This document shows, in pieces, positions 10,946-47,631 of a stretch of 64,000 bases of DNA (positions within the stretch are counted from its first letter, which is position 1; each line of letters starts with the position of its first letter). Source of the stretch: a virus (lineage: Duplodnaviria; Heunggongvirae; Uroviricota; Caudoviricetes); IMG/VR virus record IMGVR_UViG_3300021255_000139; one strand, given 5' to 3'. Below the pieces are notes generated by a model, which did not search any database, was not told the origin of the DNA, and saw only the letters and a program-made list of their open reading frames with translations. A program made the translations under genes and the position numbers.

Positions 10946-11872
10946 GTGAGCAAGAGCATTATTAAAACGTATTCTGTGATTAACAATCCAAAATATAAAA
11001 ATCCAGTGTGCAGCATTTCTGGAGGTGCGGATTCCGATATTATATTAGATTTATGTATGAATTGTGATCCAAACAAGAAAGTGAAATATGTATGGTTTGA
11101 TACTGGATTAGAGTATAAAGCAACAAAGGATCATCTAAAATATTTGGAAGAAATATATGATATAGAAATTGAAAGATTCAAAGCATTAAAGTCTATTCCT
11201 CATAGTTGTAAAGAATACGGGCAACCGTTTCTTTCAAAACAAGTCAGTGACTTTATAAGTAGGTTGCAGAAACATGGATTTCAATGGGAAGATGAATCTT
11301 ATGAAATATTATCTCAAAGATACTCGAATTGCAAATCTGCCCTTGAATGGTGGTGTTGTAATAAAGGAGAAAAAAGCAGATTCAATATCACAAACAATAA
11401 GTATTTAAAAGAGTTTATGGTAGAGAATCCACCTTGGTTTAAAATTTCAAGCAAATGCTGCAAATATGCAAAGAAAGATGTGGCAAAGGCACTTATAAAA
11501 TCAGGGAAACATGATCTCGATATAGTTGGAATTAGAAAAGCAGAAGGAGGTATTAGGTCATCTTTATATAAGAGTTGTTTTGCAGAAAATCAATTTACTG
11601 ATGATTACAGACCAGTATTCTGGTATAAAGATTCCGATAAAAGAGATTACGAAAACGCCTTTTGTATTACGCACAGTAAGTGTTATGAAGAATATGGTTT
11701 AAAGAGAACAGGATGTGCCGGGTGTCCATATAATAGATATTTTGAAGATGAATTATCAGTTATTGAAAAATATGAACCAAATTTATATAAAGCTGTTTGT
11801 ACAATTTTTAAGGATTCATATAAATACACACGGATGTATAAAGACTATGTAGAACAACAAAAATATAAATAA
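10946..11872 (+). CDS. PAPS reductase family / PP-loop ATP pyrophosphatase
   Basis: SGGADSD PP-loop, GIRKAEGGIRSS, RPVFWYKDSD motif, C-terminal Cys cluster; GTG start. Confidence 0.7.
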   Translation: MSKSIIKTYSVINNPKYKNPVCSISGGADSDIILDLCMNCDPNKKVKYVWFDTGLEYKATKDHLKYLEEIYDIEIERFKALKSIPHSCKEYGQPFLSKQVSDFISRLQKHGFQWEDESYEILSQRYSNCKSALEWWCCNKGEKSRFNITNNKYLKEFMVENPPWFKISSKCCKYAKKDVAKALIKSGKHDLDIVGIRKAEGGIRSSLYKSCFAENQFTDDYRPVFWYKDSDKRDYENAFCITHSKCYEEYGLKRTGCAGCPYNRYFEDELSVIEKYEPNLYKAVCTIFKDSYKYTRMYKDYVEQQKYK

Positions 11873-11887
11873 CAACCAAAAGGAAAA

Positions 11888-12576
11888 ATGTTAGAGATTG
11901 ATACAATTATTCATGATGATTGTATGAAATTCCTCGATTCTCTGAGGGGGGGGGTGGGATTTTTGACCTAACCCTAACCGATATTCCATACGGTGAAGTC
12001 AATCGAAGTAGTAACGGGTTGCGGAATTTGAATAAAAAAGCTGCAGATGTTATGACTTTTGATCTTCCTACCTTCCTCGAAGAATTATACAGAGTGACGA
12101 AAAGTACGATCATTATATTTTGTGGCAAAGAACAGTTAAGCGAAATACATAGATTCTTTGCCGGGAAACAAATGAAAGGATTAGGAACTGTACGACAACT
12201 GATATGGAATAAAAGTAATCCGTCACCAATGAACGGACAACATATTTATCTTTCAGGTGTTGAAAATGCAGTATGGTTCAAGAAACGTGGTGGCACATTT
12301 AACGCAAAGTGCAAAAATACGGTTTTCAAATACCCGAATGGTCGGGCGAAACTCCATCCTACCGAGAAGAATCATGATCTTATCCGAGAACTGATTAGGG
12401 ATAACAGCAACGAAGGTGATTTGATTTTTGATCCTTGTTGTGGATCAGGCGCACATTGCTTAGTTGCAGCAGAAGAAAATCGCCACTACATAGGAATTGA
12501 ACTGAATGACGATTATTATAAAATCGCCAGCGAACGATTAGAAAACTACAAAGGAGAAACTGATGGGAAACGATAA
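11888..12576 (+). CDS. beta-class amino (N6A/N4C) DNA methyltransferase, frameshifted at poly-G9
   Basis: N-terminus IIHDDCMKFLDSL (ATG at 11888) runs out of frame at G9 tract 11946-11954; downstream frame has DIPY and FDPCCGSGA motifs. Confidence 0.65.
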
Positions 12577-14743: not shown

Positions 14744-15610
14744 TTGTTTGATGGAATAAGTTGTGGATATTTGGCACTGCAACGAGCCGGATTGAATATA
14801 GATACATATTATGCAAGTGAAATTGAGCCTCATGCAGAAGGGATTTCAAAATATCATTTCCCGGACATTGTGAGATTAGGAGATGTAAATTTTTATGATA
14901 ATTGGAATCTTCCACACATTCATTTGTTGATTGGAGGAAGTCCATGTCAAGATTTATCTATTGCAAAGGCTAATAGAGAAGGACTAAACGGAGAGAAAAG
15001 CGGTCTATTTTGGAAATACGTTGAATGCTTAGAGAAGTTTAAACCAGATTATTTCTTGTTAGAGAACAATTACAGTATGCCAAAAGCTGCACGAGATGTA
15101 ATATCAGAAGTGCTTGGAGCAGAACCAATTATGATAAATTCTGATCTTGTTTCAGCACAAAACAGAAAAAGATTGTACTGGACAAATATATCGGGCATTG
15201 AACAGCCAAAAGATAAAGGAATAGAGTTGCAGAATATACTTGAAAGTGGAACAGTAGACCGTAAAAAATCATTATGTGTGACAAGACGATATGCTGGATT
15301 TCACGGATCACAAGCATTGTTATGTAGACGGTACTTTGGAAAGTCTTTTGGTCAGGCAGTTTTTGAGAAAGATATAAATACAATCAAACAACAATGGAAG
15401 GAAAACCCGTTCTTTGAATCTGATGATAACAACATTAGACAATTAACAATTACGGAGTGCGAAAGACTGCAGACTCTGCCAGATGGCTATACAAAGTATG
15501 AAGTATGGAAAAATGAAGTGAGAGAAACACCAAAAATCGCACGATATGAAGCAGTTGGTAATGGTTGGACAGTAGATGTGATAAGTCACATTTTAGGGTA
15601 TTTAAAATGA
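14744..15610 (+). CDS. DNA (cytosine-5)-methyltransferase
   Basis: motifs I (LFDGISCGYLAL), IV (GSPCQDLS), VIII (QNRKRLY), X (GNGW); TTG start. Confidence 0.8.
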   Translation: MFDGISCGYLALQRAGLNIDTYYASEIEPHAEGISKYHFPDIVRLGDVNFYDNWNLPHIHLLIGGSPCQDLSIAKANREGLNGEKSGLFWKYVECLEKFKPDYFLLENNYSMPKAARDVISEVLGAEPIMINSDLVSAQNRKRLYWTNISGIEQPKDKGIELQNILESGTVDRKKSLCVTRRYAGFHGSQALLCRRYFGKSFGQAVFEKDINTIKQQWKENPFFESDDNNIRQLTITECERLQTLPDGYTKYEVWKNEVRETPKIARYEAVGNGWTVDVISHILGYLK

Positions 15611-15957
15611 ATATAGATGAAGCTATTGCTCATGCCAAAGAAGTAGCAGAAAGTCAGGCTGATTTATATGATTGCTATTTGCAGCATGGAGAACAAGGCG
15701 ATCATGTGCAAGAATGCTTAAAATGTTCCGCACAGCATAGTCAGCTTGCCGAGTGGTTGGAGCAACTGAAACGTGCAGATACTCTTTTGACAGCAACTCA
15801 TGATTTATTGCAAAAACAATATAAGAATATCTATGTTCTGAATTTGCTTGCGGAAACAATTAACTATGACGAAGCTGAATGTGATGGAAATTGCTTAATG
15901 GAAGATATTGAAGCATGGATGATTGAACGTGGTATAGATCATGACGATGACGAATAA
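15607..15957 (+). CDS. hypothetical protein
   Basis: ATGA overlap with Dcm stop; ORF track start 15565 probably too early. Confidence 0.4.
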   Translation: MNIDEAIAHAKEVAESQADLYDCYLQHGEQGDHVQECLKCSAQHSQLAEWLEQLKRADTLLTATHDLLQKQYKNIYVLNLLAETINYDEAECDGNCLMEDIEAWMIERGIDHDDDE

Positions 15958-16435
15958 AGAAGCTATAAAACGTATCAAAGATTTTGCATTATATCATGCA
16001 ATACGTGACTTGCCAAATTCGGCGTATACAGTTGAAGCATTTGAAATGGCAATCAGAGCGTTAGAAAATCAAGATCGTGGAGTAGTTAGTCTTGGTGTAT
16101 ATGAACAAGTTCGGTGGGAAAGAGATATAGCAATCTCTCAACTCGAAGAACTTGGTTATGGTCTTGGAGAAAAGATTAGGGAAGAAGATAAGAAAATGGG
16201 TAAACCAACATTAGCTGACATCGCAGCTAAATTAAGTGAGTTCGATTCCGAATGTTTAATGACGATTGATGAATATCTTGAGTCTGTAGAAGATGGTTCG
16301 ATTACAGATTATGATGGTTGCGGAGTCTATGTAGATGATAACGGAATACAAACTATGGCAACAGACTTTGATCCAGACAAGATTAAAGCAATGAAAAATC
16401 TTGGAATCAGATTTGTATGCTGGTATAACAAATAA
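15941..16435 (+). CDS. hypothetical protein
   Basis: ORF. Confidence 0.4.
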   Translation: MTMTNKEAIKRIKDFALYHAIRDLPNSAYTVEAFEMAIRALENQDRGVVSLGVYEQVRWERDIAISQLEELGYGLGEKIREEDKKMGKPTLADIAAKLSEFDSECLMTIDEYLESVEDGSITDYDGCGVYVDDNGIQTMATDFDPDKIKAMKNLGIRFVCWYNK

Positions 16436-16441
16436 CTCATA

Positions 16442-16599
16442 AAATAATTTTTTTATTAACATTTTCTTGCATTTTCACCTCAATATAACCGAAAAATACC
16501 AAACAAAACCGCCGAATTTAGCAAAATAGACCGTAATATTACGGCAAAAAATGAAAAAATTGCCGATATTCAGCGGTTTTCGTTGATAAAAAAATTATT
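16442..16599 (+). promoter_or_regulatory. structured leader element C (arms AAATAATTTTTTTAT / ATAAAAAAATTATT; internal palindrome CCGTAATATTACGG)
   Basis: seen directly; third copy of same architecture. Confidence 0.5.
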
Positions 16600-16608
16600 C
16601 AATGGCAT

Positions 16609-17820
16609 TTGGTGAACTTCTCTGAAATTGATAAGTTTGCTATTAAGTCATACTGTGCGATACATGATGTGGATGAACAGTTAAATTTAGGTGATATTTC
16701 AAAGATTGATCCAGATGTCATTGATGATTTTGATTTAATGACGTGGGGATTTCCTTGTACTGATTTGAGTCGTGCCGGGAAACAGCAAGGCTTTTTAGAC
16801 AATAACGGAAATCTCACACGAAGCGGATTATATTATGAAGGTATCAGAATCTTACGTGCAAAGAAGCCGAAGATATCTATAATTGAGAACGTCAAGAACC
16901 TTGTTAGTAAAAGATTTTACAAAGAATTTCATATGATTTTGAACGATCTTGAAGAAGCCGGGTATAACTCCTATTGGAAAGTATTGAATGCAAAAGATTA
17001 TGGTGTTCCTCAAAATCGTGAAAGAGTTTTTATTGTATCTATCAGAAAAGATATAGATAATGGAAAGTTTCAATTTCCGCAGCCAAGAGAAAATCGCACT
17101 GCATTACTTGATATTATAGAGGAAAATGTAGATGAAAAATACTATGTAGACACGAAAAGAGCAGATGATTTAATTTCAAATGTAATTCTTGGAGATAATC
17201 TGCCAAAAGAAAAACTTAATGATATTATTCAATTAGGGAATATCGCAGTAGAGAAGGGCTTTAAAAACCCACAAATCGGAAGAGTCTATGATTCTCATGG
17301 AATCGCCCCCTCAATTACAACGATGCAAGGCGGTGATAGGATGCCAAAAGTATTGATTAGAGTAAGAGAGGGAACTAAAAAAGGATATGCAGAAGCTACA
17401 ATAGGAGATTCAATTAACATTGCTTATCCGAAAAGCGAAAACCGCAGGGGGAGAGTAGGAAAGCAAATGGTTAATACATTAGAAACATCTCCACAACAAG
17501 TTGTTGTTTTGGCTGATAAGGATGAAGTCTACAAAATAAGGCGATTAACACCGAAAGATTGTTGGCGTTGTATGGACTTCTCTGATGAAAGTTTTTATAA
17601 GGCACAAGCTGCAGGAATAAGTAATAGTCAGTTATATAAACAAGCCGGGAACAGTATTGTAGTTTCATGCTTATACTATATTCTCGAAGAATTATACAAA
17701 GCACTTCCTGATCAATTTTCTGACTTGGCTGTTACAAGTTTCTTTTCTGGTATAGGAGCATATGAAGTCGCACTGGATAGATTGTGCGAAAAAATAAATA
17801 ATGGCTTGACAAATGAATAA
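16609..17820 (+). CDS. DNA (cytosine-5)-methyltransferase, apparently circularly permuted (motif I at C-terminus)
   Basis: begins at post-motif-I segment NFSEIDKFAIKSY, then IV (GFPCTDLS), VI (ENV), VIII (QNRERVF), TRD, X (GNS), and ends with motif I FFSGIGAYEVALDRL; TTG start. Confidence 0.7.
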   Translation: MVNFSEIDKFAIKSYCAIHDVDEQLNLGDISKIDPDVIDDFDLMTWGFPCTDLSRAGKQQGFLDNNGNLTRSGLYYEGIRILRAKKPKISIIENVKNLVSKRFYKEFHMILNDLEEAGYNSYWKVLNAKDYGVPQNRERVFIVSIRKDIDNGKFQFPQPRENRTALLDIIEENVDEKYYVDTKRADDLISNVILGDNLPKEKLNDIIQLGNIAVEKGFKNPQIGRVYDSHGIAPSITTMQGGDRMPKVLIRVREGTKKGYAEATIGDSINIAYPKSENRRGRVGKQMVNTLETSPQQVVVLADKDEVYKIRRLTPKDCWRCMDFSDESFYKAQAAGISNSQLYKQAGNSIVVSCLYYILEELYKALPDQFSDLAVTSFFSGIGAYEVALDRLCEKINNGLTNE

Positions 17821-17849: not shown

Positions 17850-18155
17850 GTGATATTGATGCAAAGAAATGATTCGAGAAACACGAAAAGAAACAGAGAC
17901 AGGAAATATAAAGAAAAACTCAAACGTCTTTATAAAGTCAATAGCTGGATGGTTTCAAAACGTGATCCCGAAGATGATTTCTGTCGCAGAGATATCACCA
18001 AGGTTTATTATAAACGATTTTATTGGACAAATGGCGTGAAGAAATGGTTGCGCAGACAATCCAATAAAGCTATAAGAAACGCAACTTTTGATGAAATCCC
18101 CATGAAAGGTTGCGGTTACAAAAAGAAATATGACTTATGGTGGGAATTATATTAA
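17850..18155 (+). CDS. basic hypothetical protein
   Basis: ORF. Confidence 0.35.
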   Translation: MILMQRNDSRNTKRNRDRKYKEKLKRLYKVNSWMVSKRDPEDDFCRRDITKVYYKRFYWTNGVKKWLRRQSNKAIRNATFDEIPMKGCGYKKKYDLWWELY

Positions 18156-19123
18156 GGAGGAAAAGAATGGATATCATTAAAACACACACCGGGAAAATCT
18201 ATGTAGATAAGGAGAAGCAGCTTGAATTTCTTACTGTAGGAGATTATGGGAAAGAGAATAATATCAAAGCTGATTTTCTTGGACTCACAAAAGAGATTAA
18301 CGGAGTAGCAAATACTGCTGTTGATCTCACAAAGAAGTGGGTTGCAACAATTAGTACGCAGAAAGGTTGTCCGATGAAGTGTCAATTCTGCGATTGCCCT
18401 AAGTATGGATTTCACGGAAATGCGAGTGTTTCAGATTTGGTATATGAAATTGAAACAATCCTTATGAACGAACATATAAAGAATACAGAAAGATTTAATG
18501 TTCATTTTGCGAGGATGGGAGAGCCTACGTTCAATGAGAACGTATTGACTTTTGCCCGATACTATTTGAAGAACATTGTTGATAATTATGTTGCTGCGGA
18601 CACTATCCACCCGGTAGTCTCAACTATGCTGCCAGCCAAGAATAGAAAGTTAAAGGATTTTCTTCTCAACTGGTGCGAAATTAAAAATAGTGATTATAAA
18701 GGTGAAGCCGGACTGCAGTTCAGTATTAATAGTACGAATAATGAACAGAGAAACATACAATTCAACAATATGAGTCTGAATCTCGAACTGATTTCTTATC
18801 TGGCTGATCTTCTGCCTATGCCGATTGGTCGCAAATATACTCTGAATTTTGCGGTAACAAAAGATACGATTCTTGATGCAGATAGACTGTCGAACTTGTT
18901 TGATAAGGAAAAGTTCATTGTAAAAATCACACCGATTCACGAAACTAATTCTGCTATTAAAAATGGGTTTGACGTAACTACAACTTACACGGACTATGAT
19001 GTGTACAGACAGTTTGAACAGCCACTTGTTGAAAAAGGATGGGATGTTATCGTGTTTGTTCCATCAAAAGAAGAGGATAGCGACAGAATCACTTGCGGAA
19101 ATGCACTTATTTCTATGATGTGA
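18137..19123 (+). CDS. radical SAM domain protein
   Basis: CPMKCQFC (CxxxCxxC) and MGEPT motif. Confidence 0.65.
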   Translation: MVGIILRRKRMDIIKTHTGKIYVDKEKQLEFLTVGDYGKENNIKADFLGLTKEINGVANTAVDLTKKWVATISTQKGCPMKCQFCDCPKYGFHGNASVSDLVYEIETILMNEHIKNTERFNVHFARMGEPTFNENVLTFARYYLKNIVDNYVAADTIHPVVSTMLPAKNRKLKDFLLNWCEIKNSDYKGEAGLQFSINSTNNEQRNIQFNNMSLNLELISYLADLLPMPIGRKYTLNFAVTKDTILDADRLSNLFDKEKFIVKITPIHETNSAIKNGFDVTTTYTDYDVYRQFEQPLVEKGWDVIVFVPSKEEDSDRITCGNALISMM

Positions 19124-19124
19124 G

Positions 19125-20261
19125 GTGGCAGAAATGGCAGAAACATATGAACTGACATTAACTGAAAACTATGTATCAGATTGGGATTTTTATGATGCCA
19201 TAAGAGAACTTATTCAGAATGGTACAGATCAAGAGATTCTTGATAAGAGCAACCACTTTGACATGATTTATGATCCCGGCGAAAAGGTTCTTCGATTTAT
19301 CAACGCTACGTCCAAACTGAAAATCAATACTTTATTGTTAGGTAGAAGTAGCAAGACGAATAACTCAGATACGGTCGGGCAATTTGGTGAAGGTTACAAA
19401 ATTGCAGCACTCGTTCTGAACCGTATCGGCAAAACATTTACTATTTACAATAATAATAAAAACGAGGTCTGGGAAAGCAAGTTTGTTAATTCTAAGAAGT
19501 GGTTGGAAAAAATTCTTCAGTTTACAGTAACAAAAAATGAAACAGATAAAAAAGGACTTGTTATTGAAATCGGAAATGTTACCTATTGGGAATATGAAGG
19601 TATTTCTGATATTTGGCTTCAGAGATATGAAGAAAAGAATGACGTTGAAAAAATCCACACCATGTACGGAGAAATCCTTCTGAATGATGAATTGAGTGGA
19701 AGAATCTTTGTTAATGGTCTTTCTGTAAACTCCAAAAATGAAATGCACTATGGATATAATTTCAAGCCTAAATACATCAAGTTAGAGCGAGATCGTAGAA
19801 CGTGTGATGATTGGGAAATGGGATATGTAACTACAAGAATGATTTGTGAAGCTGTTCTTGCTGGAAGTCTTTCCATTTATGAAGTAACTAAACTTGCAGA
19901 TATGGATGCAAAAGACATTTATCATATGTCATTCGCTTATTATGAAGAGAACGTAGCGAAAGTAAAAGAATTGCTACTTCAGCAGTTTGATGCACAATAT
20001 CTCGACAGCATTCCAGTTGAAACACAAGAAGAATATAATCGGGTAAAAACCTATGGTGGCAAACCCGTTATTGTTCCGCAGCCGATTGCACGAATGTTGA
20101 AAGATACTATGAGGGCAAGGATCAAGAAACTCTCAATGGAAAATCTGGACGATATTCCGACTGTAAAAGAGCAACTTGAAAGATGGCTTAATGCATGGTT
20201 CGGTGAATTACCCGGAGATGCTATTGATGAATTTAGAAACATTCTCAAGAAGATGGATTAA
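19125..20261 (+). CDS. GHKL-family ATPase domain protein
   Basis: N-box ELIQNGTDQ and G2-box GQFGEGYKIAAL of the Bergerat fold. Confidence 0.5.
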   Translation: MAEMAETYELTLTENYVSDWDFYDAIRELIQNGTDQEILDKSNHFDMIYDPGEKVLRFINATSKLKINTLLLGRSSKTNNSDTVGQFGEGYKIAALVLNRIGKTFTIYNNNKNEVWESKFVNSKKWLEKILQFTVTKNETDKKGLVIEIGNVTYWEYEGISDIWLQRYEEKNDVEKIHTMYGEILLNDELSGRIFVNGLSVNSKNEMHYGYNFKPKYIKLERDRRTCDDWEMGYVTTRMICEAVLAGSLSIYEVTKLADMDAKDIYHMSFAYYEENVAKVKELLLQQFDAQYLDSIPVETQEEYNRVKTYGGKPVIVPQPIARMLKDTMRARIKKLSMENLDDIPTVKEQLERWLNAWFGELPGDAIDEFRNILKKMD

Positions 20262-25778: not shown

Positions 25779-26232
25779 TGAAAATGAGAGTAAGAACAAG
25801 AGAAGAGAAGAAAATTAGTGACTTATTGAACACTATGTCATTAGTTGATATTAGAATAATTTCAGAAATAGAAGAAATACAACGAGGAAATGAACATTCT
25901 TCAAAAGATATATTGGAAGGAATTGAGTATATCCTTGAAGAAAGATTTGCATTTATGATTAGAGATGAAAATAAACCAGAATAAAAAGCTGGTTTTATTC
26001 TCATAGCTGTTTCAAGCCATGACTCTGGCTGGAAATCACGTTTTTGTGGATACTTTTTGTATGAGATAGATAAATCGTCATTCACCGTAATTCTATATAA
26101 TTTATGGAGTGTTCCGCTATGATCGAATGCTTTGATAATCTGTTTGTCCAACCAGTAATATCCCTCAAATAACGGTAATACGGCATTTTTTGCACTCCAC
26201 ATATCAATCAATTCTTTATATATTGGTTGCAT
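25750..26232 (-). CDS. hypothetical protein (3' extent uncertain)
   Basis: ATG 26232 preceded by AAGGAGA RBS; 26232-25990 part looks protein-like, remainder is probably antisense read-through. Confidence 0.3.
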   Translation of the reverse strand: MQPIYKELIDMWSAKNAVLPLFEGYYWLDKQIIKAFDHSGTLHKLYRITVNDDLSISYKKYPQKRDFQPESWLETAMRIKPAFYSGLFSSLIINANLSSRIYSIPSNISFEECSFPRCISSISEIILISTNDIVFNKSLIFFSSLVLTLIFISTFCSSVV

Positions 26233-27275
26233 ATTTCTCCTTTGCAATAAAACCAGCTTTTGAAATCAAAGAAAAGAAAAGCATCCAACTTATACAAGAT
26301 ACTGTTGACACTCACCCAGAGTATAGTTCTTTCGTGCTACATTCGACAGGAAAAGATAGTGTTGTCGTTCAGCATTTATGTGATATGGCAAATAGAAATA
26401 TAAAGACTGTTTTCAATAATACAACATTGGATTGTGCAGATACATACCGAATAGTCAATCTAAACAAAGACAAATGGATCATTACAACGCCGGACATAGG
26501 ATTCTATCAATATATTAAAAAAGAGAACTTTATTCCAACAAGATTTTCGAGAGCCTGTTGTTCAATATTTAAAGAAGGAAATCACATCAATCATTTTGAT
26601 AATGTCGATAAGGCAATATGGATAATGGGTGTTCGGAATGATGAAAGTGCAAAAAGATCGAACAGACAAGATATAGAACATAACCCAAAGTGGGGAAATC
26701 GAGAATGGATTGGGTTATTGCCTATTAGAAAATGGACAGAATTGGAAGTTTGGCTTTATATTATATTGAACAATTTGCCATTAAATCCGAAATATAGAAA
26801 AGGATATAAAAGATGTGGCTGCCATGTGGCGTGTCCATATCAGAGCAAATCTGATTGGATTCTTGATCAGTATTTCTATCCTAAAATGTATAATAGGTGG
26901 CATAATATTCTTGAAGATGATTTTATAAAAAATGGGAAATGGTGTACGCTTAATTGCACGATTGAAGAATATCATAAGTATTGGAACGGTGGTGTAGTTC
27001 GAGAAATTCCAACACGAGAAGTGATTGAAGAATTTATGAAATACAAAGGTATTGATGATTTTTCTTTGGCTGAGAAGTATTTCAACAAGAAGTGTAAGAA
27101 ATGTGGCAGACTGATACGATCTAAAGATGTAATAGCTATGAACTTGAAAATGAGAAGTCGGACTTGCTCTGATTTTTACTGTAAAAAATGCTTTATAAAA
27201 GAAGCTGAAATAACAAAAGAAGAATGGGATAGTTATATTAGTGGCTTCAAAAATGAAGGTTGTGTTTTGTTCTAA
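26190..27275 (+). CDS. PAPS reductase family / PP-loop ATP pyrophosphatase with C-terminal zinc ribbon (DndC/SspD-like)
   Basis: STGKDS PP-loop, GVRNDES, PIRKWTELEVWLYI, CGCHVACP, C-terminal CKKCGR...CKKC; TTG start. Confidence 0.7.
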   Translation: MHSTYQSILYILVAYFSFAIKPAFEIKEKKSIQLIQDTVDTHPEYSSFVLHSTGKDSVVVQHLCDMANRNIKTVFNNTTLDCADTYRIVNLNKDKWIITTPDIGFYQYIKKENFIPTRFSRACCSIFKEGNHINHFDNVDKAIWIMGVRNDESAKRSNRQDIEHNPKWGNREWIGLLPIRKWTELEVWLYIILNNLPLNPKYRKGYKRCGCHVACPYQSKSDWILDQYFYPKMYNRWHNILEDDFIKNGKWCTLNCTIEEYHKYWNGGVVREIPTREVIEEFMKYKGIDDFSLAEKYFNKKCKKCGRLIRSKDVIAMNLKMRSRTCSDFYCKKCFIKEAEITKEEWDSYISGFKNEGCVLF

Positions 27276-27349: not shown

Positions 27350-27919
27350 TTGAGTGTGAATATTACTAATCACGCTGCAATGAGGTATGCTGAAAGAATT
27401 GCCGATAAAGAATCATTAGCAGACATAAATACCTATGTTGCCAGAAACCGGGATAAGATAGAAAATGATATAAATACAATGCTTGATCATTCAGATTTTC
27501 TTTATCACGGAAGAGTAGGAACAAAAGATAACGGTGTTGTTGATGTATATCTCTCTGGAACATGGATTCTTTTATTGGATTCAGCCAAAAGCAAAGTGAT
27601 TACACTATACAAAGTTGATTTCAATGTGGGCGAAGATTTCAACAAGCAGTTCATTCAAAAGATTCTCGAACGAATGGAGATTCACAAGAAAGAACTGGAT
27701 GAAGTGAAAAAAGAAGTTGCAGAACAGCGTGAGAATTATCTGCAAATCATTAAAGATAACAAAAGTCAGATTGCAGAATATAAGAACGCTATAAGGCAGT
27801 TAGAAAATCTCAATACCGATTATCAAGATATTGTTGACACTATGGATGCAAAATGTATAGCTTCTGAAATTGCAATCCGGCATGATGTTGAAGATTTAGT
27901 TATGAAGAGGGAGTTCTAA
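27350..27919 (+). CDS. coiled-coil protein
   Basis: ORF; heptad-like charged C-half. Confidence 0.4.
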   Translation: MSVNITNHAAMRYAERIADKESLADINTYVARNRDKIENDINTMLDHSDFLYHGRVGTKDNGVVDVYLSGTWILLLDSAKSKVITLYKVDFNVGEDFNKQFIQKILERMEIHKKELDEVKKEVAEQRENYLQIIKDNKSQIAEYKNAIRQLENLNTDYQDIVDTMDAKCIASEIAIRHDVEDLVMKREF

Positions 27920-29097
27920 TGCTTTATTACGATAATGCAGCAACAACAAGGGTTGACAAAAGTTTAGAGCCAATTTTGCAGAGTATGTTCTTTGACAATT
28001 ACGGCAACCCATCAAGCGTACATACAGTCGGACAATATGCAAAAGAAGTAATTGAGAGAGCGAGGGAGTTGGTTGCGATTTCCATAAATTGCGCACCAGA
28101 TGAAATCATTTTCACATCAGGAGGATCAGAGTCAAATAACCTTGCCCTTAAAGGATTTTCATTTGCGAATGACTGTGAGATTATCACAAGTCCTATTGAA
28201 CACAAGTCAATTTTAGAGACTTGTAAATTCTTACAGAATCAACAAATAAATAAATACTACACTGTCGATGTGGATTCAGACGGTGTGGTTGAAATGTTTA
28301 GTCTGCAAGAAAGAATAGCAGAGGTTAAAAGTTATAATCTGATTCCGCTGGTAAGTATTCAGTTGGCAAATAGTGAAATCGGAACGATTCAACCAATTAA
28401 GGAAATAGCAAAAGTTGTTCATTCTTTTGGTGGTGTTCTTCACGTTGACGCAGTTCAGGCGTACTTCACAATCCAAATTGATGTTCAAGATATGGGAATT
28501 GATATGCTGTCCGTATCTGGTCATAAGATTGGAGTTCCGAAAGGGATAGGCTTTTTATATAAGAAGAAAAGCATACATATCGAACCTTTAATTCATGGTG
28601 GTGGTCAAGAACATGGATTGAGAGCCGGAACAGAGAACACTCCGTATATTGCAGCTTTAAACGATAAACTTTGTCGAGATTTCAGCGAAGAAGATATAGG
28701 GCAAAAAGCGGAACAGCTTTATCAAATGAGGACGTATCTCGAAAAGAAACTGTTAAAAATTCCAGATTCAAGAATCAATGGAGCAGAAAACAAACTACCG
28801 GGGAATATAAATATCAGTTTCAAAGACATTGACGGAGAAACACTTATGATGCTTCTCGACACAAATGATTTAGAGGTATCAAATGGTTCAGCTTGTAATG
28901 CTGGAAATCCAGAACCTTCATATGTACTGAAAGCTATCAAAGTTCCAGATGACTATATTAACGGAACAATTCGGATCACGATTGCCCCGAAAAAGAAATC
29001 AAATTCATATCGGTTAGAATCGAAAGATTTTGCAGAACTTGATATGGTTGCAGATAAGATAAGTAAATATGTAAGTGTTTTAAGAAAAGTTAGGTAG
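27919..29097 (+). CDS. cysteine desulfurase (class V aminotransferase, IscS/NifS/DndA-like)
   Basis: YYDNAATT N-terminus, SGGSESN, PLP lysine motif SVSGHKIGVPKG, active-site Cys region NGSACNAG. Confidence 0.8.
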   Translation: MLYYDNAATTRVDKSLEPILQSMFFDNYGNPSSVHTVGQYAKEVIERARELVAISINCAPDEIIFTSGGSESNNLALKGFSFANDCEIITSPIEHKSILETCKFLQNQQINKYYTVDVDSDGVVEMFSLQERIAEVKSYNLIPLVSIQLANSEIGTIQPIKEIAKVVHSFGGVLHVDAVQAYFTIQIDVQDMGIDMLSVSGHKIGVPKGIGFLYKKKSIHIEPLIHGGGQEHGLRAGTENTPYIAALNDKLCRDFSEEDIGQKAEQLYQMRTYLEKKLLKIPDSRINGAENKLPGNINISFKDIDGETLMMLLDTNDLEVSNGSACNAGNPEPSYVLKAIKVPDDYINGTIRITIAPKKKSNSYRLESKDFAELDMVADKISKYVSVLRKVR

Positions 29098-29106
29098 GAG
29101 GACAAG

Positions 29107-29727
29107 ATGAATATCGAGAAAATCAAAGATGCATTGAAAGTTTTTAGCTGTGAAGTTATCAGCCAGAATGAAAATGAAGCAGTTATCAAAGTATCGAAGA
29201 AAACCGTGAAACTGGCAGATATCCCGAATGGATCAACTTTTAAAGTCGGGAAATTCGAGTTTATTAAACTTGGAGATGCTGCAGACGGAGAAACAACAGC
29301 GGTTATTCTGAAAGAATTTGTAAAGAGGATGGAATTTGGCAAGCATAACAACTACGCCAAAAGTGATGTGCGTAAATATCTCAACAGTGATTTCCTGAAG
29401 GAACTTGAAAAAGAAGTTGGTGCAAACAATATATATGAACATAAGGTTGATTTGATTGCAAATGACGGTCTGAAGGATTATGGAAGTGTAAGAGATAAGG
29501 TTAGTCTGATCACAGCAGAAAATTACAGAAGATATCGTGAGTTTCTTCCGAATTATGGTGATTGGTGGTGGACTGCAACACCATATTCATGTGAATCCAA
29601 CGGTTATGCGTCCAACGTTTGTTACGTGTACTGCAGCGGTTCTTTGGGCGGGATCGACTGTGGCGATTCGGAGGGTGTGCGCCCGTTTTGCATCTTTTCA
29701 TCTTCAATCTTTGTATCTTGTGAATAA
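29107..29727 (+). CDS. DGR1 variable target protein (C-type-lectin-like VR at C-terminus)
   Basis: C-terminal codons 29602-29690 match TR1 except at TR adenines. Confidence 0.7.
   Translation: MNIEKIKDALKVFSCEVISQNENEAVIKVSKKTVKLADIPNGSTFKVGKFEFIKLGDAADGETTAVILKEFVKRMEFGKHNNYAKSDVRKYLNSDFLKELEKEVGANNIYEHKVDLIANDGLKDYGSVRDKVSLITAENYRRYREFLPNYGDWWWTATPYSCESNGYASNVCYVYCSGSLGGIDCGDSEGVRPFCIFSSSIFVSCE
29602..29690 (+). repeat. DGR1 variable repeat (VR1)
   Basis: about 80-90 nt copy of TR1; differences almost exclusively at TR A positions. Confidence 0.75.
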
Positions 29728-30125: not shown

Positions 30126-30224
30126 CAGGTTATGTGTTGTAGCGTCCAACGTTTGTTACGTGTACAACAACGGTACTTTGAACAGGAACGACTGTGACTA
30201 TTCAAAGGGTGTGCGCCCGTTCTG
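30126..30224 (+). repeat. DGR1 template repeat (TR1)
   Basis: seen directly; AAC-rich; shared GC-rich 3' end GGGTGTGCGCCCGT (IMH-like). Confidence 0.75.
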
Positions 30225-31365
30225 GTGGATAGCGAGGGCGAGTAAGCAATATGCTGAAAGGAGAACAACATCATCAAAAGAACACATAACCTTTCCAAAT
30301 AAAAAGGATAAATACAAAGGTTTAAATAAAATATTGACAGACTTTCAAAAAGTCGTAGACTTCGGAAACTTATATAGAGCATATAAGAAAGCCAAAAAAG
30401 GTAAAAGAAATAAACGAAGTGTAGTAAAATTCGCCATTGTAGCACTTGAAGGTATTCATTTACTAAGAGAACTACTGACAAAGAGAACATATACAATTTC
30501 TTCATATGGCGAATTTACTATATTTGAACCAAAAGAAAGATTAGTAAAGTCTGGAGCATTTAAAGATAAAGTAGTTCAGCATTCATTGTGTGATAATGTC
30601 TTATTACCAACAATGGCAGAGTTATTTATAGAGAATAATTTCGCCGGACAAATAGGGAAAGGAACATTATTCGGACTGGATCATTTGAAGAACGATATGC
30701 TGCAATTCCATAAAGAACATGGAATGGACGGCTATATTCTAAAATGCGATATTACTAAATTCTTTTATACCATAGACCATGATGTATTGAAAAGTGTTGT
30801 CCGAAAATACTTTTCGGATGAAGGTATTATTTGGTTATGTGATCTATTTATAGATAGTACAGATGGAGTAGGAATACCACTTGGAAATCAAGTAAGTCAA
30901 GTATTCGCACTAATGTACTTAAATGAATTGGATCACATTATAACAGAAGAATTACATATAAAGTATTATGGAAGATATATGGATGACTTTTATTTAATAC
31001 ATGAAGATAAAGAATACTTGAAATATTGTCTGAATGTAATTCAAGAGCATATTCATAGTTTGAAATTAACATTGAATGGTAAAACACAGATTATGCCGTT
31101 CAAAAATGGCATCAAATTTCTTGGCTTTCATACATATGTGACACCAGAAGGAAAAGCAATACGGAAACTCAAAAATGAAAATAAGCGCATGATTAAAAAG
31201 CGTTTATTAAAACACAGCAAACTTGTTAAGGCTGGAAAGATGACAAAAGAGAAGTTCTTTGAATCATATGAATCGTGGAAAAATCACGCATCACATGGAA
31301 ACTGTATTAAGCTGATTTATCAAATGGATAAATATGTTGAAGAACTATTCAAGGAAACAAAATAA
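30160..31365 (+). CDS. DGR reverse transcriptase (RT1)
   Basis: RT motifs ILKCDITKFFYTIDH, IPLGNQVSQVFAL (DGR-type GxxxSQ), YGRYMDDFYLI; ORF-track N-terminus is translated TR, true start probably about 30250-30340. Confidence 0.8.
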   Translation: MYNNGTLNRNDCDYSKGVRPFWWIARASKQYAERRTTSSKEHITFPNKKDKYKGLNKILTDFQKVVDFGNLYRAYKKAKKGKRNKRSVVKFAIVALEGIHLLRELLTKRTYTISSYGEFTIFEPKERLVKSGAFKDKVVQHSLCDNVLLPTMAELFIENNFAGQIGKGTLFGLDHLKNDMLQFHKEHGMDGYILKCDITKFFYTIDHDVLKSVVRKYFSDEGIIWLCDLFIDSTDGVGIPLGNQVSQVFALMYLNELDHIITEELHIKYYGRYMDDFYLIHEDKEYLKYCLNVIQEHIHSLKLTLNGKTQIMPFKNGIKFLGFHTYVTPEGKAIRKLKNENKRMIKKRLLKHSKLVKAGKMTKEKFFESYESWKNHASHGNCIKLIYQMDKYVEELFKETK

Positions 31366-31401
31366 GTATTTTATCAACCAAAAGAAAGGAAGTGTTGTTA
31401 A

Positions 31402-45759: not shown

Positions 45760-47631
45760 ATGAGTGATTTACGGAGAAACCCATTATATTATTTAAGGTC
45801 AAATAAAGATTTACAAGATTTACCGAGAAGAGTTGCGATATATGCACGAGTATCAACAGAACATGAAGCACAGCTATACGCATTGGAAAATCAAGTAGAT
45901 TGGTACAATGAAATTCTCGCACGACATTCAAACTGGACTTTGGTTGAACAATATATTGATCGTGGAATCACAGGAACATCAGCTAAAAAACGTCCGAGTT
46001 TCATGAAAATGATTGATGATGCAGCCAATGAAGAATTTGATATAGTTATCACAAGAGAAGTATCAAGATTCGCAAGAAACACAGTAGATACACTTCAGTA
46101 TACTAGAGAGTTAAAACGTAATGGTATCGAAGTGTATTTTGTTGAAGATAATATCTGGACTTTTGATCCAGATGGAGAACTAAGACTAACCATTATGGCA
46201 ACTCTCGCACAAGATGAAAGCAGAAAAACTTCGTTACGTGCGAAAGCTGGACAGAGAACAAGTATGGAGAAAGGTGTATTTTTCCAGAACGGTTCAATCT
46301 TAGGTTACGACTATAATAAATATGATAGAACACTCACAATCAATGAAGAACAAGCGGAAACAGTAAGAATGATTTTCGATTTGTATAACCAAGGATTAGG
46401 AGTGCGAAAAATTCAATGGGAATTAGAAAAAGCTGGAAGAAAAACAGCACGAGGAAGTGATTTGTGGAGTGCCTCTGTAATCAGCCGAGTTCTCAAAAAT
46501 AAAATATACTGCGGATATTTGGTATGGTACAAGCAGTTTGTGCCAGATTTTCTCGAACAAAAGAAGGTTAATAACCACGGAGAAAAAGAACAGTTTGAGG
46601 TTTTAGGATCGCACGAACCGATTATAACGCTTGAAGAATGGCAGAAAGCAAACGATAGGCTGAATGCAAGAAAATCAACTGATGGAAAACAAACAGCCAA
46701 AAGAAAACCTGTTGATGTTTGGACGAAAAAGCTACGTTGCATTTGTGGTCGTGGATTTAACCGCAGAGCGTGGCACAAAGACGCAAAAAACGGAAAAGAA
46801 TACTACGGGTATACCTGTTATAATGTAGTAAAGTCCGGGAGTGCGAAAACAAGAGCGAACAAAGGTTTAACTATGGAAGGAGTTTGCACAACACCGTCTG
46901 TATCACGCTGGAAACTTGAAGCAATGGCACTCTATATTTTTAGAACTATGTCTATTAACAAAGATCATATCATCGAAGTAGCTACCCGTATGATAGATAG
47001 TCATATTAAAGACGGTGAAAGTGATCTTGAAAAAAATAAGAAAACCATCAAGTCTTTGAATTTAGAACTTGAAAAGTTGGAGAAAAAGATAGATAATATA
47101 ATTGATATGCGTACAGAAGGGGAGATATCAAAAGAAGTCTTTCTTAGCAAAAAGGAGCAGTTCGAGGATCGTGTAAAAGAAATAGAAGCGCAACTTGACG
47201 AATTGAATACTGACGAAGAAACACAAGATTATTCAAAACAGATTGCGCTATGGAAAGACTGCCTTGAACAAATGCTCAATTATCAAGACGCTGATAAAAT
47301 CCCGGAGTACGTCATTGATGCTATGGTTGATTATATTCTTGTAGACGGAACTACGTTTAAATGGAAGTTTCGCTTTATGCCTGATGAATACGATTTGACC
47401 GTTGAAGGTAATCGTGAAAGCAATGGAGTGTTGATAGATAATAAGAGTGGCGAAAAAGTCTCGTCTTTTGCTCAATGCTTCACAGGCAGCAATAAGCGAA
47501 GGACGAAAATAGAACGTTGGAAGGTAGCTGAATATCTTTTTACTAAGGATATTGCTATCAAATACATGAATAAGCGTCCACAAGATAGAATACACAAGTG
47601 GTATGATATTTTGATTGAGATTTATTTCTAA
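45760..47631 (+). CDS. large serine recombinase (integrase)
   Basis: N-terminal resolvase catalytic domain VAIYARVSTEHEAQ, recombinase domain, Cys zinc ribbon and coiled-coil C-terminus. Confidence 0.85.
   Translation: MSDLRRNPLYYLRSNKDLQDLPRRVAIYARVSTEHEAQLYALENQVDWYNEILARHSNWTLVEQYIDRGITGTSAKKRPSFMKMIDDAANEEFDIVITREVSRFARNTVDTLQYTRELKRNGIEVYFVEDNIWTFDPDGELRLTIMATLAQDESRKTSLRAKAGQRTSMEKGVFFQNGSILGYDYNKYDRTLTINEEQAETVRMIFDLYNQGLGVRKIQWELEKAGRKTARGSDLWSASVISRVLKNKIYCGYLVWYKQFVPDFLEQKKVNNHGEKEQFEVLGSHEPIITLEEWQKANDRLNARKSTDGKQTAKRKPVDVWTKKLRCICGRGFNRRAWHKDAKNGKEYYGYTCYNVVKSGSAKTRANKGLTMEGVCTTPSVSRWKLEAMALYIFRTMSINKDHIIEVATRMIDSHIKDGESDLEKNKKTIKSLNLELEKLEKKIDNIIDMRTEGEISKEVFLSKKEQFEDRVKEIEAQLDELNTDEETQDYSKQIALWKDCLEQMLNYQDADKIPEYVIDAMVDYILVDGTTFKWKFRFMPDEYDLTVEGNRESNGVLIDNKSGEKVSSFAQCFTGSNKRRTKIERWKVAEYLFTKDIAIKYMNKRPQDRIHKWYDILIEIYF

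Follow-up and report, generated by a model that had tools for sequence, protein, structure and literature searches.

A natural family of phage C5-cytosine methyltransferases circularly permuted between motifs I and II, with a probable start-codon inversion switch and a variable poly-G tract

A 64,000-nucleotide (nt) stretch of DNA from a virus of the Caudoviricetes (IMG/VR record IMGVR_UViG_3300021255_000139; the whole stretch is referred to below as the window) encodes a C5-cytosine DNA methyltransferase in which motif I, normally at the N-terminus, stands at the C-terminus. The enzyme belongs to a previously undescribed natural class of C5-methyltransferases, circularly permuted between motifs I and II, that forms a large, monophyletic-looking family in phages and prophages. 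Sequence comparisons indicate that, in a sub-group of this family that includes the window phage, the gene is controlled by an invertible segment carrying its start codon; a poly-G tract within the gene also varies in length. The explanation that we consider likely to hold as a whole is that the permuted family derives from SPR/rho11s-type Bacillus-phage enzymes, that its expression is doubly variable, and that the copy in the window is in the OFF state.

The gene occupies positions 16609-17820 on the forward strand, where it reads as a 403-amino-acid (aa) open reading frame (ORF) from a TTG codon; it was assigned from the ORF list, PF00145 and TIGR00675 matches, a structure model and Foldseek. 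Direct translation gives the motif order II-IV-VI-VIII-variable region-IX-X-I. The first conserved block is motif II, FSEIDK (16618-16635), which aligns to residues 32-37 (GFSEIDK) of the enzyme of Bacillus phage rho11s, followed by motif IV, GFPCT, with the catalytic cysteine (16747-16761; G47, F48, P49 and C50 invariant among 70 family members), motif VI, ENV (16885-16893; E93, N94 and V95 invariant), and motif VIII, QNRER (17011-17025; Q135, N136, R137 and R139 invariant). A variable, target-recognition region at about residues 160-309 (17086-17535), placed by a gapped alignment to the rho11s region of multiple target-recognition domains (TRDs), separates these from motif IX, IRRLTPKDCWRCMDF (17536-17580, from translation), and motif X, GNSIVV (17647-17664; G347, N348, S349 and I350 invariant). 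The motif X helix and a linker, SCLYYILEELYKALPDQFSDLAVTS (17665-17739), then join the old C-terminus to the old N-terminus, as seen in family conservation and in modelled helices at residues 352-365 and 367-370. Finally, the relocated motif I, FFSGIGAYEVALDRLCEKINNGLTNE (17740-17817), comprises strand beta1, the FxGxG loop for S-adenosylmethionine (AdoMet) and helix alphaA, as recognized from invariant residues, alignments and the model; its core, FFSGIGA, lies at 17740-17760, and a helix-forming tail ends the protein. Across the 70-member alignment the invariant positions (P49, C50, E93-V95, Q135-R139 and G347-I350) extend into this block with F379, S380, G381, G383, A384, E386 and L389. The motif set of a C5-methyltransferase is thus complete (I FxGxG, IV PC, VI ENV, VIII QxRxR, X GN), while the canonical linear order from I to X is absent. 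All of these features lie on the forward strand, and the translation bears out the initial annotation, which had described a 403-aa ORF from the TTG with motifs IV, VI, VIII and X followed by a C-terminal motif I.

Profile and pairwise searches identified the protein as a genuine circular permutant. PF00145 matched residues 2-363 to profile positions 25-323/324 (E 3e-66, 224.4 bits against a cut-off of 22), and TIGR00675 (NCBIfam dcm) matched residues 2-362 to positions 24-329 (234 bits against a cut-off of 100.65). Because both matches begin at profile position 24-25, the motif I part of the profiles has no N-terminal counterpart in the protein. When the C-terminal block was moved to the front in silico, the PF00145 match covered profile positions 3-323 and its score rose from 224.4 to 232.3 bits, so that the block passed the profile check that had been proposed for it as motif I, and joining the C-terminus to the N-terminus restored a canonical N-terminus, as had been claimed. 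BLASTP against the canonical rho11s enzyme produced two alignments: residues 1-372 with rho11s residues 29-503 (E 5e-68, 32% identity over 487 columns), and residues 370-389, FSDLAVTSFFSGIGAYEVAL, with rho11s residues 1-20, MSKLRVMSLFSGIGAFEAAL (65% identity, E 2e-4). The two overlap at residues 370-372, the signature of a head-to-tail permutation, which indicates a break between motifs I and II. The C-terminal block aligns both to these first 20 residues of rho11s and to residues 8-29 of M.HhaI, and window residues 332-398 match the X-to-I junction of plant DRM structures (4onj, E 2e-6; 7l4c, E 2e-4). The permuted order recurs in 119 of the 120 best homologues, including all 119 that are full length; the exception, P0005, is truncated. 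None of the 119 carries an N-terminal motif I. The full-length homologues start with W.LVNFCEFDKYA.KSYCAIH (the family consensus around the protein start being W.LVNF) and carry SSFFSGIGAFE.ALDRLY about 31 residues after motif X and about 25 from the end. We therefore hold with very high confidence, on these comparisons, that the permutation is a real trait of the family.

An AlphaFold2 model built with the family alignment (mean predicted local distance difference test score (pLDDT) 80.7; predicted template modelling score 0.81) begins with a strand at residues 3-5 and a helix at 9-19, and ends with a strand at 375-378, paired according to DSSP, and a helix at 384-402, both with pLDDT 85-90. 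Its best Foldseek match was M.HhaI (E 5e-24, template modelling score 0.80 on the target), and the model has the two-domain M.HhaI-like fold. In this arrangement the chain starts at strand beta2, in motif II, and beta1, the FxGxG loop and alphaA have shifted from the N- to the C-terminus, where a conserved linker of about 14 residues ties them to the motif X helix. Because the termini adjoin in canonical C5-methyltransferases, the permuted chain would be expected to retain the fold as well as the catalytic and AdoMet sites. The termini of M.MpeI and M.SssI are adjacent, and plasmid DNA was protected once the engineered permutants cp35M.MpeI and cp33M.SssI had been induced (PMC5944983). The model confidence, strand pairing, residue invariance and published engineering together suggest that the relocated loop sits in the AdoMet pocket; of the structural check that had been suggested, the paired strand and helix are thus modelled outright, and the packing into the pocket is a predicted feature. 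The window protein has about two TRD-like modules, one of them poorly modelled, and comparison of TRDs did not yield a target specificity. On this evidence the enzyme is probably active, and it would methylate cytosine at C5 at sites chosen by the variable region.

Upstream of the gene lies a 129-bp invertible segment (16457-16585) whose Shine-Dalgarno sequence and ATG point away from the gene in the window. It is flanked by inverted repeats with 23-nt arms, 87% complementary and 121 nt apart, of which the left (16438-16460) holds the perfect 14-bp core AATAATTTTTTTAT at 16443-16456 and the right (16582-16604, core 16586-16599), found by repeat search and contig comparison, lies inside the conserved codons (V)[D/N]KKIIQ. 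An 18-mer of the repeat occurs in the window at both arms and as one copy with two mismatches only, against 0.15 matches expected by chance; this third near-copy, AATAAGTATTTTATCAAC, is at 31361-31378, at the extreme end of a reverse transcriptase ORF. In 7 of 13 related contigs, representing three of eight haplotypes (L004, at about 2374-2540, L005 and L007-L011), the segment is the exact reverse complement of that in the window; the other 6 (five of eight haplotypes), among them L002, L006, L012, L013 and L094, have the window-like orientation. A T/C mismatch beside the core moves with the segment, and since it switches sides in this way, crossover must have occurred inside the core. The repeats, at 14-23 bp, are far below the assembly k-mers given in the contig records (k115, k141), so each orientation was presumably spanned by reads. 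Within the segment are a further 21-nt inverted repeat (16497-16517/16568-16588) and a central palindrome (16530-16545, GCCGTAATATTACGGT), which in other lineages is replaced by a different one (GTGTGTACACAC) and could be a protein-binding site or an RNA hairpin.

Orientation determines whether the gene has a recognizable translation start. In the window the signals lie on the reverse strand at 16470-16481, as CAT (16470-16472; ATG) and CACCTC (16476-16481; GAGGTG), and after inversion would drive a product beginning MQENVNKKIIQWH. In L004 and others the ON-orientation sequence is GAGGTGAAAATGCAAGAAAATGTTAATAAAAAAATTATTCAATGGCAT; the junction in L004, L005 and L007-L011, GAGGTGAAAATGCAAGAAAATG joined to TTAATAAAAAAATTATTCAATGGCAT, places a Shine-Dalgarno sequence and an ATG in the gene frame, spaced as GAGGTG, then AAA, then the in-frame ATG, in that one orientation only. 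Besides the Shine-Dalgarno sequence and the ATG, the ON segment would thereby supply the gene's first six codons, for a full-length protein starting MQENVNKKIIQWHLVNF, and the proteins P0123-P0125 of ON relatives indeed begin MQENVNKKIIQWHLVNFSEIDK. In the window orientation, the gene frame instead reads a stop codon followed by KNCRYSAVFVDKKIIQWHLVNF without an ATG; in-frame KKIIQWH codons (16588-16608, forward strand), recognized by translation and in relatives as conserved N-terminal coding sequence, lie upstream of the TTG with no start codon. With the signals facing away, all that would be left in this OFF state is the TTG and GTG at 16609 and 16612, which have no ribosome-binding site and in L006, a contig in the window orientation, are TTA and GTA, neither TTG nor GTG, so that the L006 allele lacks any start codon at this point. 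The enzyme is thus probably switched off in the window copy. The ORF does read from the TTG in the window, as first annotated, and this codon is probably not the natural start of the gene, given that relatives use an ATG from the oppositely oriented segment.

The same comparison disposes of two upstream strings, both present in the DNA, that had been proposed as decayed remnants of motif I. MKKLPIFSGFR, from an ATG at 16553 that L006 lacks, falls within the 129-bp segment that is inverted in related phages. KKLFNGIW arises when the conserved N-terminal codons KKIIQWH are read in the wrong frame. We rejected both as relics, and since the permutation is old and family-wide, none would be expected beside this one copy.

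A second potential control lies within the variable region. The poly-G tract at 17447-17451 (forward strand) comprises five in-frame G in the window and is hypervariable across the DNA of the 13 contigs and among protein variants: L002 and L007-L009 share the 5 G of the window, L010-L013 and L094 have 6 G, L006 has 8 G, and L004 and L005 have 10 G, with 7 G implied by the protein variants P0128 and P0132 of the same 90% cluster. With 6, 7 or 10 G the frame shifts, and the gene breaks up into one ORF of 282-301 aa and another of 117 aa; in L004, L005 and L010-L013 the corresponding called genes are 287-301 aa and 117 aa long. ON and OFF orientations each occur with 5, 6 and 10 G, and among 15 listed variants of the 90% cluster together with P0002, P0125 is the only one both ON and in frame; the window copy is predicted to be OFF by orientation and, with 5 G, in frame. 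The gene bodies of seven close haplotypes differ at 17-35 of 1,235 nt, that of L006 at about 150-160 (L094 was left out). The length of an intragenic tract thus varies among near-identical genomes and changes the frame, as in homopolymer phase-variable genes, and the tract would act as a second expression control. Phasevarions are governed by bacterial N6-adenine Mod proteins. The window gene resembles these Mod/Type III genes in that a homopolymer in the ORF varies in length and shifts the frame, and differs in being a phage C5 enzyme with a short tract (5-10 G) and a downstream part that may be re-initiated. Separately, the 241-aa protein P0005, encoded on a 98-kb contig, terminates with HGIAPLNYNDARR and a stop codon, as a 6-C version of the 5-C tract at 17306-17310 in the window (GCCCCCTCA) would give; judged from the protein only, it may be a second homopolymer frameshift allele.

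The frameshifted alleles need not be OFF. They could encode a two-chain enzyme of the same or altered specificity, with motifs II-VIII and part of the variable region on one chain and motifs IX, X and I on the 117-aa chain, an alternative that we regard as unlikely but credible. Directly after the tract, at 17452-17472 on the forward strand, a Shine-Dalgarno-like element (AGGAAAG, within AGAGTAGGAAAG) precedes the in-frame ATG (M of KQMVNTLE) that starts the 117-aa ORF, and the two ORFs overlap (1501-2406 and 2399-2752 in L010), which fits translational coupling. In addition, natural and artificial C5-methyltransferases split in the variable region complement efficiently (PMC5944983). Speaking against two functional chains, the break falls inside a conserved module of the variable region (SKTRRGRVQ..G.I.PTITATETG).

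Comparable switches were found elsewhere in the family. In a second lineage, in which the inverted segment again carries a Shine-Dalgarno sequence and ATG and lies upstream of position 1201 in both L095 and L096, the junction in L096 (P0014 group) joins TATAGAGGTAGATGGTAGAAAATAAGGAT to AAAAAATATAATTC to give MVENKDKKYNSDKQWELVNF; in L095 (P0100) the inner ~130 bp is reverse-complemented relative to L096, which produces an ATG that is out of frame, and the gene is called from an internal MNLGDITK. A repeat scan of 420 nt around motif II in the family loci recovered, in six distant members (L014, L021, L029, L030, L033 and L038), paired repeats that enclose 115-137 bp, a score reached by 1 of 175 control windows; in all six, 25-33 nt separate the end of the right arm from motif II. 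The state of L033 is ON-like (MEDSNDKKIV...), and inversions worked by hand in L030 and L038 would create in-frame ATGs. Like invertons of the fimS type, invertible promoters of gut bacteria and gene-altering programmed inversions, the window segment is short, flanked by repeats, found in both orientations and equipped with expression signals for the adjacent gene. It differs in supplying a ribosome-binding site, a start codon and the first six codons with no recognizable promoter, in having one repeat inside the coding sequence, in residing in a phage and in targeting a C5-methyltransferase. The published lists of inversion targets that we found comprise Type I hsdS, PglX, N6-methylases and tail fibres, with no phage C5-methyltransferase among them (PMC9881135, PMC7672463), and the literature that we searched contained no phage C5-methyltransferase under inverton or homopolymer control, which is absence of evidence only. 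At the sequence level, the inverted-repeat flanks, the two orientations between near-identical flanks and the orientation-dependent start signals are those of an inverton, and we think it very probable that the inversion is a genuine programmed switch. The ON-orientation leader folds into a long hairpin (z = -2.7), and an Rfam scan of the ON-orientation locus matched no family.

Several observations weigh against a permuted, active and doubly switched enzyme. Contigs of identical haplotype always share orientation and G length, which means that the comparison documents repeated change among lineages 1-3% apart and not rapid switching within a population, and 5 G is short for a slippage-prone tract. 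The frameshifted alleles, in keeping a Shine-Dalgarno sequence and ATG for the 117-aa ORF, may produce a split, still active enzyme. No invertase was found: a phmmer search with Hin, gamma-delta resolvase, XerD and FimB against all window ORFs returned as sole recombinase a large serine recombinase 28 kb away (45760-47631, forward strand; Pfam Resolvase 4e-32, Recombinase 2e-23), which is more likely the phage integrase and a weak candidate for the invertase. The same queries together with the window recombinase, searched against the ORFs of the other loci, revealed no recombinase consistently within 3 kb of the other switches. The segment contains no sigma-70 consensus promoter in either orientation and has two weak terminator-like hairpins in the same direction as its Shine-Dalgarno sequence and ATG, so the labels ON and OFF refer to translation signals alone. 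As for the protein, variable-region residues 255-304 have pLDDT below 50 and diverge from the family consensus, the proposed packing of motif I into the pocket draws on confidence values and DSSP pairing, and the activity and target sequence of the permuted enzyme are predictions.

Some of these points would also suit a simpler history, in which the inversion and the G-tract changes are ordinary rare mutations, by short-repeat recombination and slippage, that became fixed by lineage and left the window copy as a damaged allele. The constancy of state within identical haplotypes, the lack of an invertase among window ORFs and at the other loci, and a window tract of only five nt all favour it. 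We nevertheless consider it improbable. A repeat-flanked segment of about 120-135 bp carrying a Shine-Dalgarno sequence and ATG recurs in distant members, in which the repeat sequences differ and the two arms co-vary; both orientations exist in the second lineage; and the inversions are precise, with the mismatch base exchanged. Moreover, each of the tract lengths 5, 6 and 10 G is found with either orientation in genomes less than 3% apart, which implies repeated events.

Among characterized proteins, the closest in sequence to the window enzyme are the multispecific C5-methyltransferases of Bacillus phages SPR, phi3T, rho11s, H2 and SPbeta. The SPR/rho11s group and the window family share near-identical blocks (FSEIDKYAIKSYCAIHN.DEQLN.GD, SNSQLYKQAGNSI and LFSGIGAFE.AL) and, apparently, a long variable region of repeated TRD-like modules, and both consist of phage-borne orphan enzymes. 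They differ in that motif I is N-terminal in the SPR/rho11s enzymes and C-terminal in the window family, in that motif IV of the window protein has PCT, as in Bastille-like Bacillus phages, in place of the PCQ of the SPR/rho11s type, and in that no switch has been described for the SPR/rho11s enzymes. The permuted family would have been derived from enzymes of this type by circular permutation.

The position of the break sets the family apart from known permutants. A 2018 REBASE survey scanned 20,677 C5-methyltransferases for motif X ahead of motif I and found 27 natural permutants, including M.BssHII, M.Alw26I, M2.Eco31I, M.Esp3I and M2.BsaI, all broken in the variable region (PMC5944983). 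These BssHII-type enzymes are natural permutants of the same fold that, like the window family, place motif X ahead of motif I; in their arrangement ('Type H/J'), however, IX-X precede I-VIII and the termini lie in the variable region, whereas the window protein starts at motif II and keeps the variable region internal. The plant enzymes DRM2 and NtDRM share with the window family both a permutation and a direct motif X to motif I junction, and show no close sequence relationship to the window protein outside that junction. DRM enzymes are eukaryotic, RNA-directed and dimeric, and are broken between motifs V and VI, giving the order VI-X, I-V; in the window protein, by contrast, motifs IV-VIII precede IX-X-I. 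The nearest topology is that of cp35M.MpeI and cp33M.SssI, whose N-termini appear to fall between motifs I and II, judging from residue numbers and from the A-to-J ordering of the paper, in which Class B is between II and III (PMC5944983). Those two are laboratory constructs of CG-specific enzymes, as permutants of M.HaeIII were products of directed evolution; the window family would be a natural counterpart with an evolved, conserved linker. No natural motif I/II permutant was described in the literature that we searched, which is absence of evidence only.

A plausible route to this topology is visible in related phages. Bacillus phage Deep Blue (KU577463.1, 1355-3637; L003) carries two canonical methyltransferases of the same clade, both with PCT, in the same frame and with one stop codon between them, the boundary reading GNAIVVDVMVDIFRELFKDRIKEGTH, stop, MEELRVVELFAGYGSQS; L079, L081 and L082 have a similar tandem layout with two in-frame stop codons between the copies. 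A direct tail-to-head fusion of rho11s would yield a linker of similar length to that observed. Taking the Deep Blue type of tandem as a natural model of the state before permutation, we propose that tandem paralogues fused in frame, after which the first copy lost motif I and the second lost everything after alphaA. The initial annotation had ascribed the permutation to tandem duplication and decay; the duplication and fusion are thus made plausible by these tandems, and the upstream relics cited for the decay are not.

Tandem in-frame genes could also have left the C-terminal motif I as a dead remnant of a downstream copy, in which case the enzyme would lack a working AdoMet loop and be inactive or dependent on a partner. 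It also fits such a remnant that a further C5-methyltransferase, of canonical order, is encoded 1 kb upstream in the window phage (14744-15610) and that most sampled alleles are off in some way. We consider this highly improbable. The relocated residues F379, S380, G381, G383, A384, E386 and L389 and the linker are kept in members that, over the alignment, are only 52-62% identical to the window protein, and their invariance argues against a neutral relic, in which decay would be expected; in the model the block forms a paired strand and a helix with pLDDT 85-90; and the engineered permutants with the same start site are active (PMC5944983).

Conservation of the junction extends this argument to the whole family. 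The linker between motifs X and I is conserved family-wide as ELYKAMPYLFDDLKLSS, and in 19 diverse members the junction is 61-78% identical to that of the window. A 70-position profile of motif X, linker and motif I, searched against 1.84 billion cluster representatives (50% identity), matched 2,609 proteins at E<=1e-3, 317 at E<=1e-10 and 73 at E<=1e-30, and the 150 top matches listed all span the junction in one stretch, mostly at the C-terminus. These results point to a permutation that is old, family-wide and under selection. When one genome per species was scanned, 417 stretches were confirmed, most of them from gut Clostridia and Bacilli, with a Coprobacillaceae bacterium also among the matches, and cultured isolates with the permuted gene include Dorea, Blautia, Coprococcus, Faecalimonas (Faecalimonas umbilicata DSM 103426), Enterocloster, Dysosmobacter and Ruminococcus. 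For the gene start, an exact-pattern scan of IMG/VR gave no match and a scan of JGI metagenomes gave one locus. The idea that permuted C5-methyltransferases are rare thus agrees with the literature (PMC5944983) and not with nature, where this family is abundant in gut metagenomes. A misjoined assembly, in which the 5' end of a conventional gene appears at its 3' end, can be dismissed: we found no evidence for it, and the order recurs among the homologues in independent ENA, Logan, JGI and NCBI assemblies, down to 37-60% identity, and in cultured isolates (Dorea, Faecalimonas umbilicata DSM 103426, Blautia, Coprococcus), the X-to-I linker is itself conserved, and the junction alone retrieves the 317 clusters at E<=1e-10.

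Around this conserved framework the family varies considerably. Protein length ranges from 357 to 857 aa, driven by the variable region; some members have PCQ in place of PCT in motif IV; and P0146 and P0203, judging from their sequences, contain inteins inside motif IV. Some extend past the C-terminal motif I (L019, L042, L044, L046, L049, L050, L062, L065 and L069; P0031, P0036 and P0229) by an additional TRD-like module (such as GYINDYNGDANRVYDG..RTLKA.AGGGGAKTGWY), by a zinc-ribbon-like tail rich in cysteine or by some other added domain.

The window itself is phage DNA of about 35% G+C encoding a DNA polymerase III alpha subunit, an NAD-dependent ligase, an anaerobic ribonucleotide reductase, a thymidylate synthase, an endolysin and the large serine recombinase. 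Contigs related to the window phage are 108-168 kb long, and a DNA search against deposited phages returned short patches only, to methyltransferase genes of Bacillus and other phages, with no close relative of the window. In addition to the permuted enzyme it encodes an N6/N4-type DNA methyltransferase (11920-12576) and the canonical-order C5-methyltransferase of 288 aa already mentioned. Both have intein-bearing versions in relatives: the C5 enzyme as a 639-aa protein interrupted by an intein (Hint_2 and Intein_splicing; L004 1-1541), and the N6/N4 enzyme as a 507-aa protein whose intein has a faint LAGLIDADG match (L002 1203-2726). Between the two C5-methyltransferase genes (15565-16435) lie two small ORFs, of 130 and 164 aa, which are present in most relatives and missing in L002 (5792-6001). 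Downstream, at 17850-20261, all relatives keep the same gene order: a protein of about 100 aa, a radical-SAM (S-adenosylmethionine)-like protein (18137-19123; PF04055 E 5e-5, phrog_24834 E 1e-105) and a 378-aa protein (phrog_6077). Speculatively, these could form a DNA-modification cluster working with the methyltransferase.

Two further sets of features in the window lie apart from the methyltransferase. Two proteins with 3'-phosphoadenosine-5'-phosphosulfate reductase domains and a class-V aminotransferase (cysteine-desulfurase-like, E 6e-65) are encoded at 10946-11872, 26190-27275 and 27919-29097, a combination reminiscent of DndC/DndA-type genes for sulfur modification of DNA. There is also a diversity-generating retroelement, with a reverse transcriptase ORF at 30160-31365 (RVT_1, E 6e-15), an 83-nt variable repeat (29608-29690) at the 3' end of an ORF at 29107-29727, and a template repeat (30142-30224) that overlaps the start of the reverse transcriptase ORF; 11 of the 13 mismatches between the repeats are at template adenines.

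C5-cytosine methyltransferases are a textbook case of fixed motif order, with published natural exceptions broken in the variable region or, in plant DRM, between motifs V and VI. The existence of a large natural family with its break between motifs I and II indicates that evolution has used a topology so far obtained only by protein engineering, and it offers a source of many natural linkers and termini for split and permuted methyltransferase tools, while the in-frame tandem paralogues of related phages give a concrete picture of a duplication-fusion-truncation route. For annotation, the OFF orientation has the consequence that gene callers give truncated or oddly started genes. The purpose of the switch may be stochastic on/off cytosine methylation of phage and prophage DNA, a form of bet-hedging between hosts with methylation-sensitive and methylation-dependent restriction; this rationale is our conjecture. 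More tentatively still, and a little short of an even chance in our estimation, the new class as a whole may be a doubly phase-variable (inverton plus poly-G), phage-borne epigenetic bet-hedging device, in which permutation was perhaps favoured by freeing the N-terminus from the AdoMet loop and so letting the first codons overlap a recombination site. The start-codon inverton and the variable homopolymer suggest that phages, like bacteria, toggle DNA methylation, and such switching would bear on the interpretation of gut metagenomes with regard to phage host range, restriction evasion and prophage-driven epigenetics of the host.

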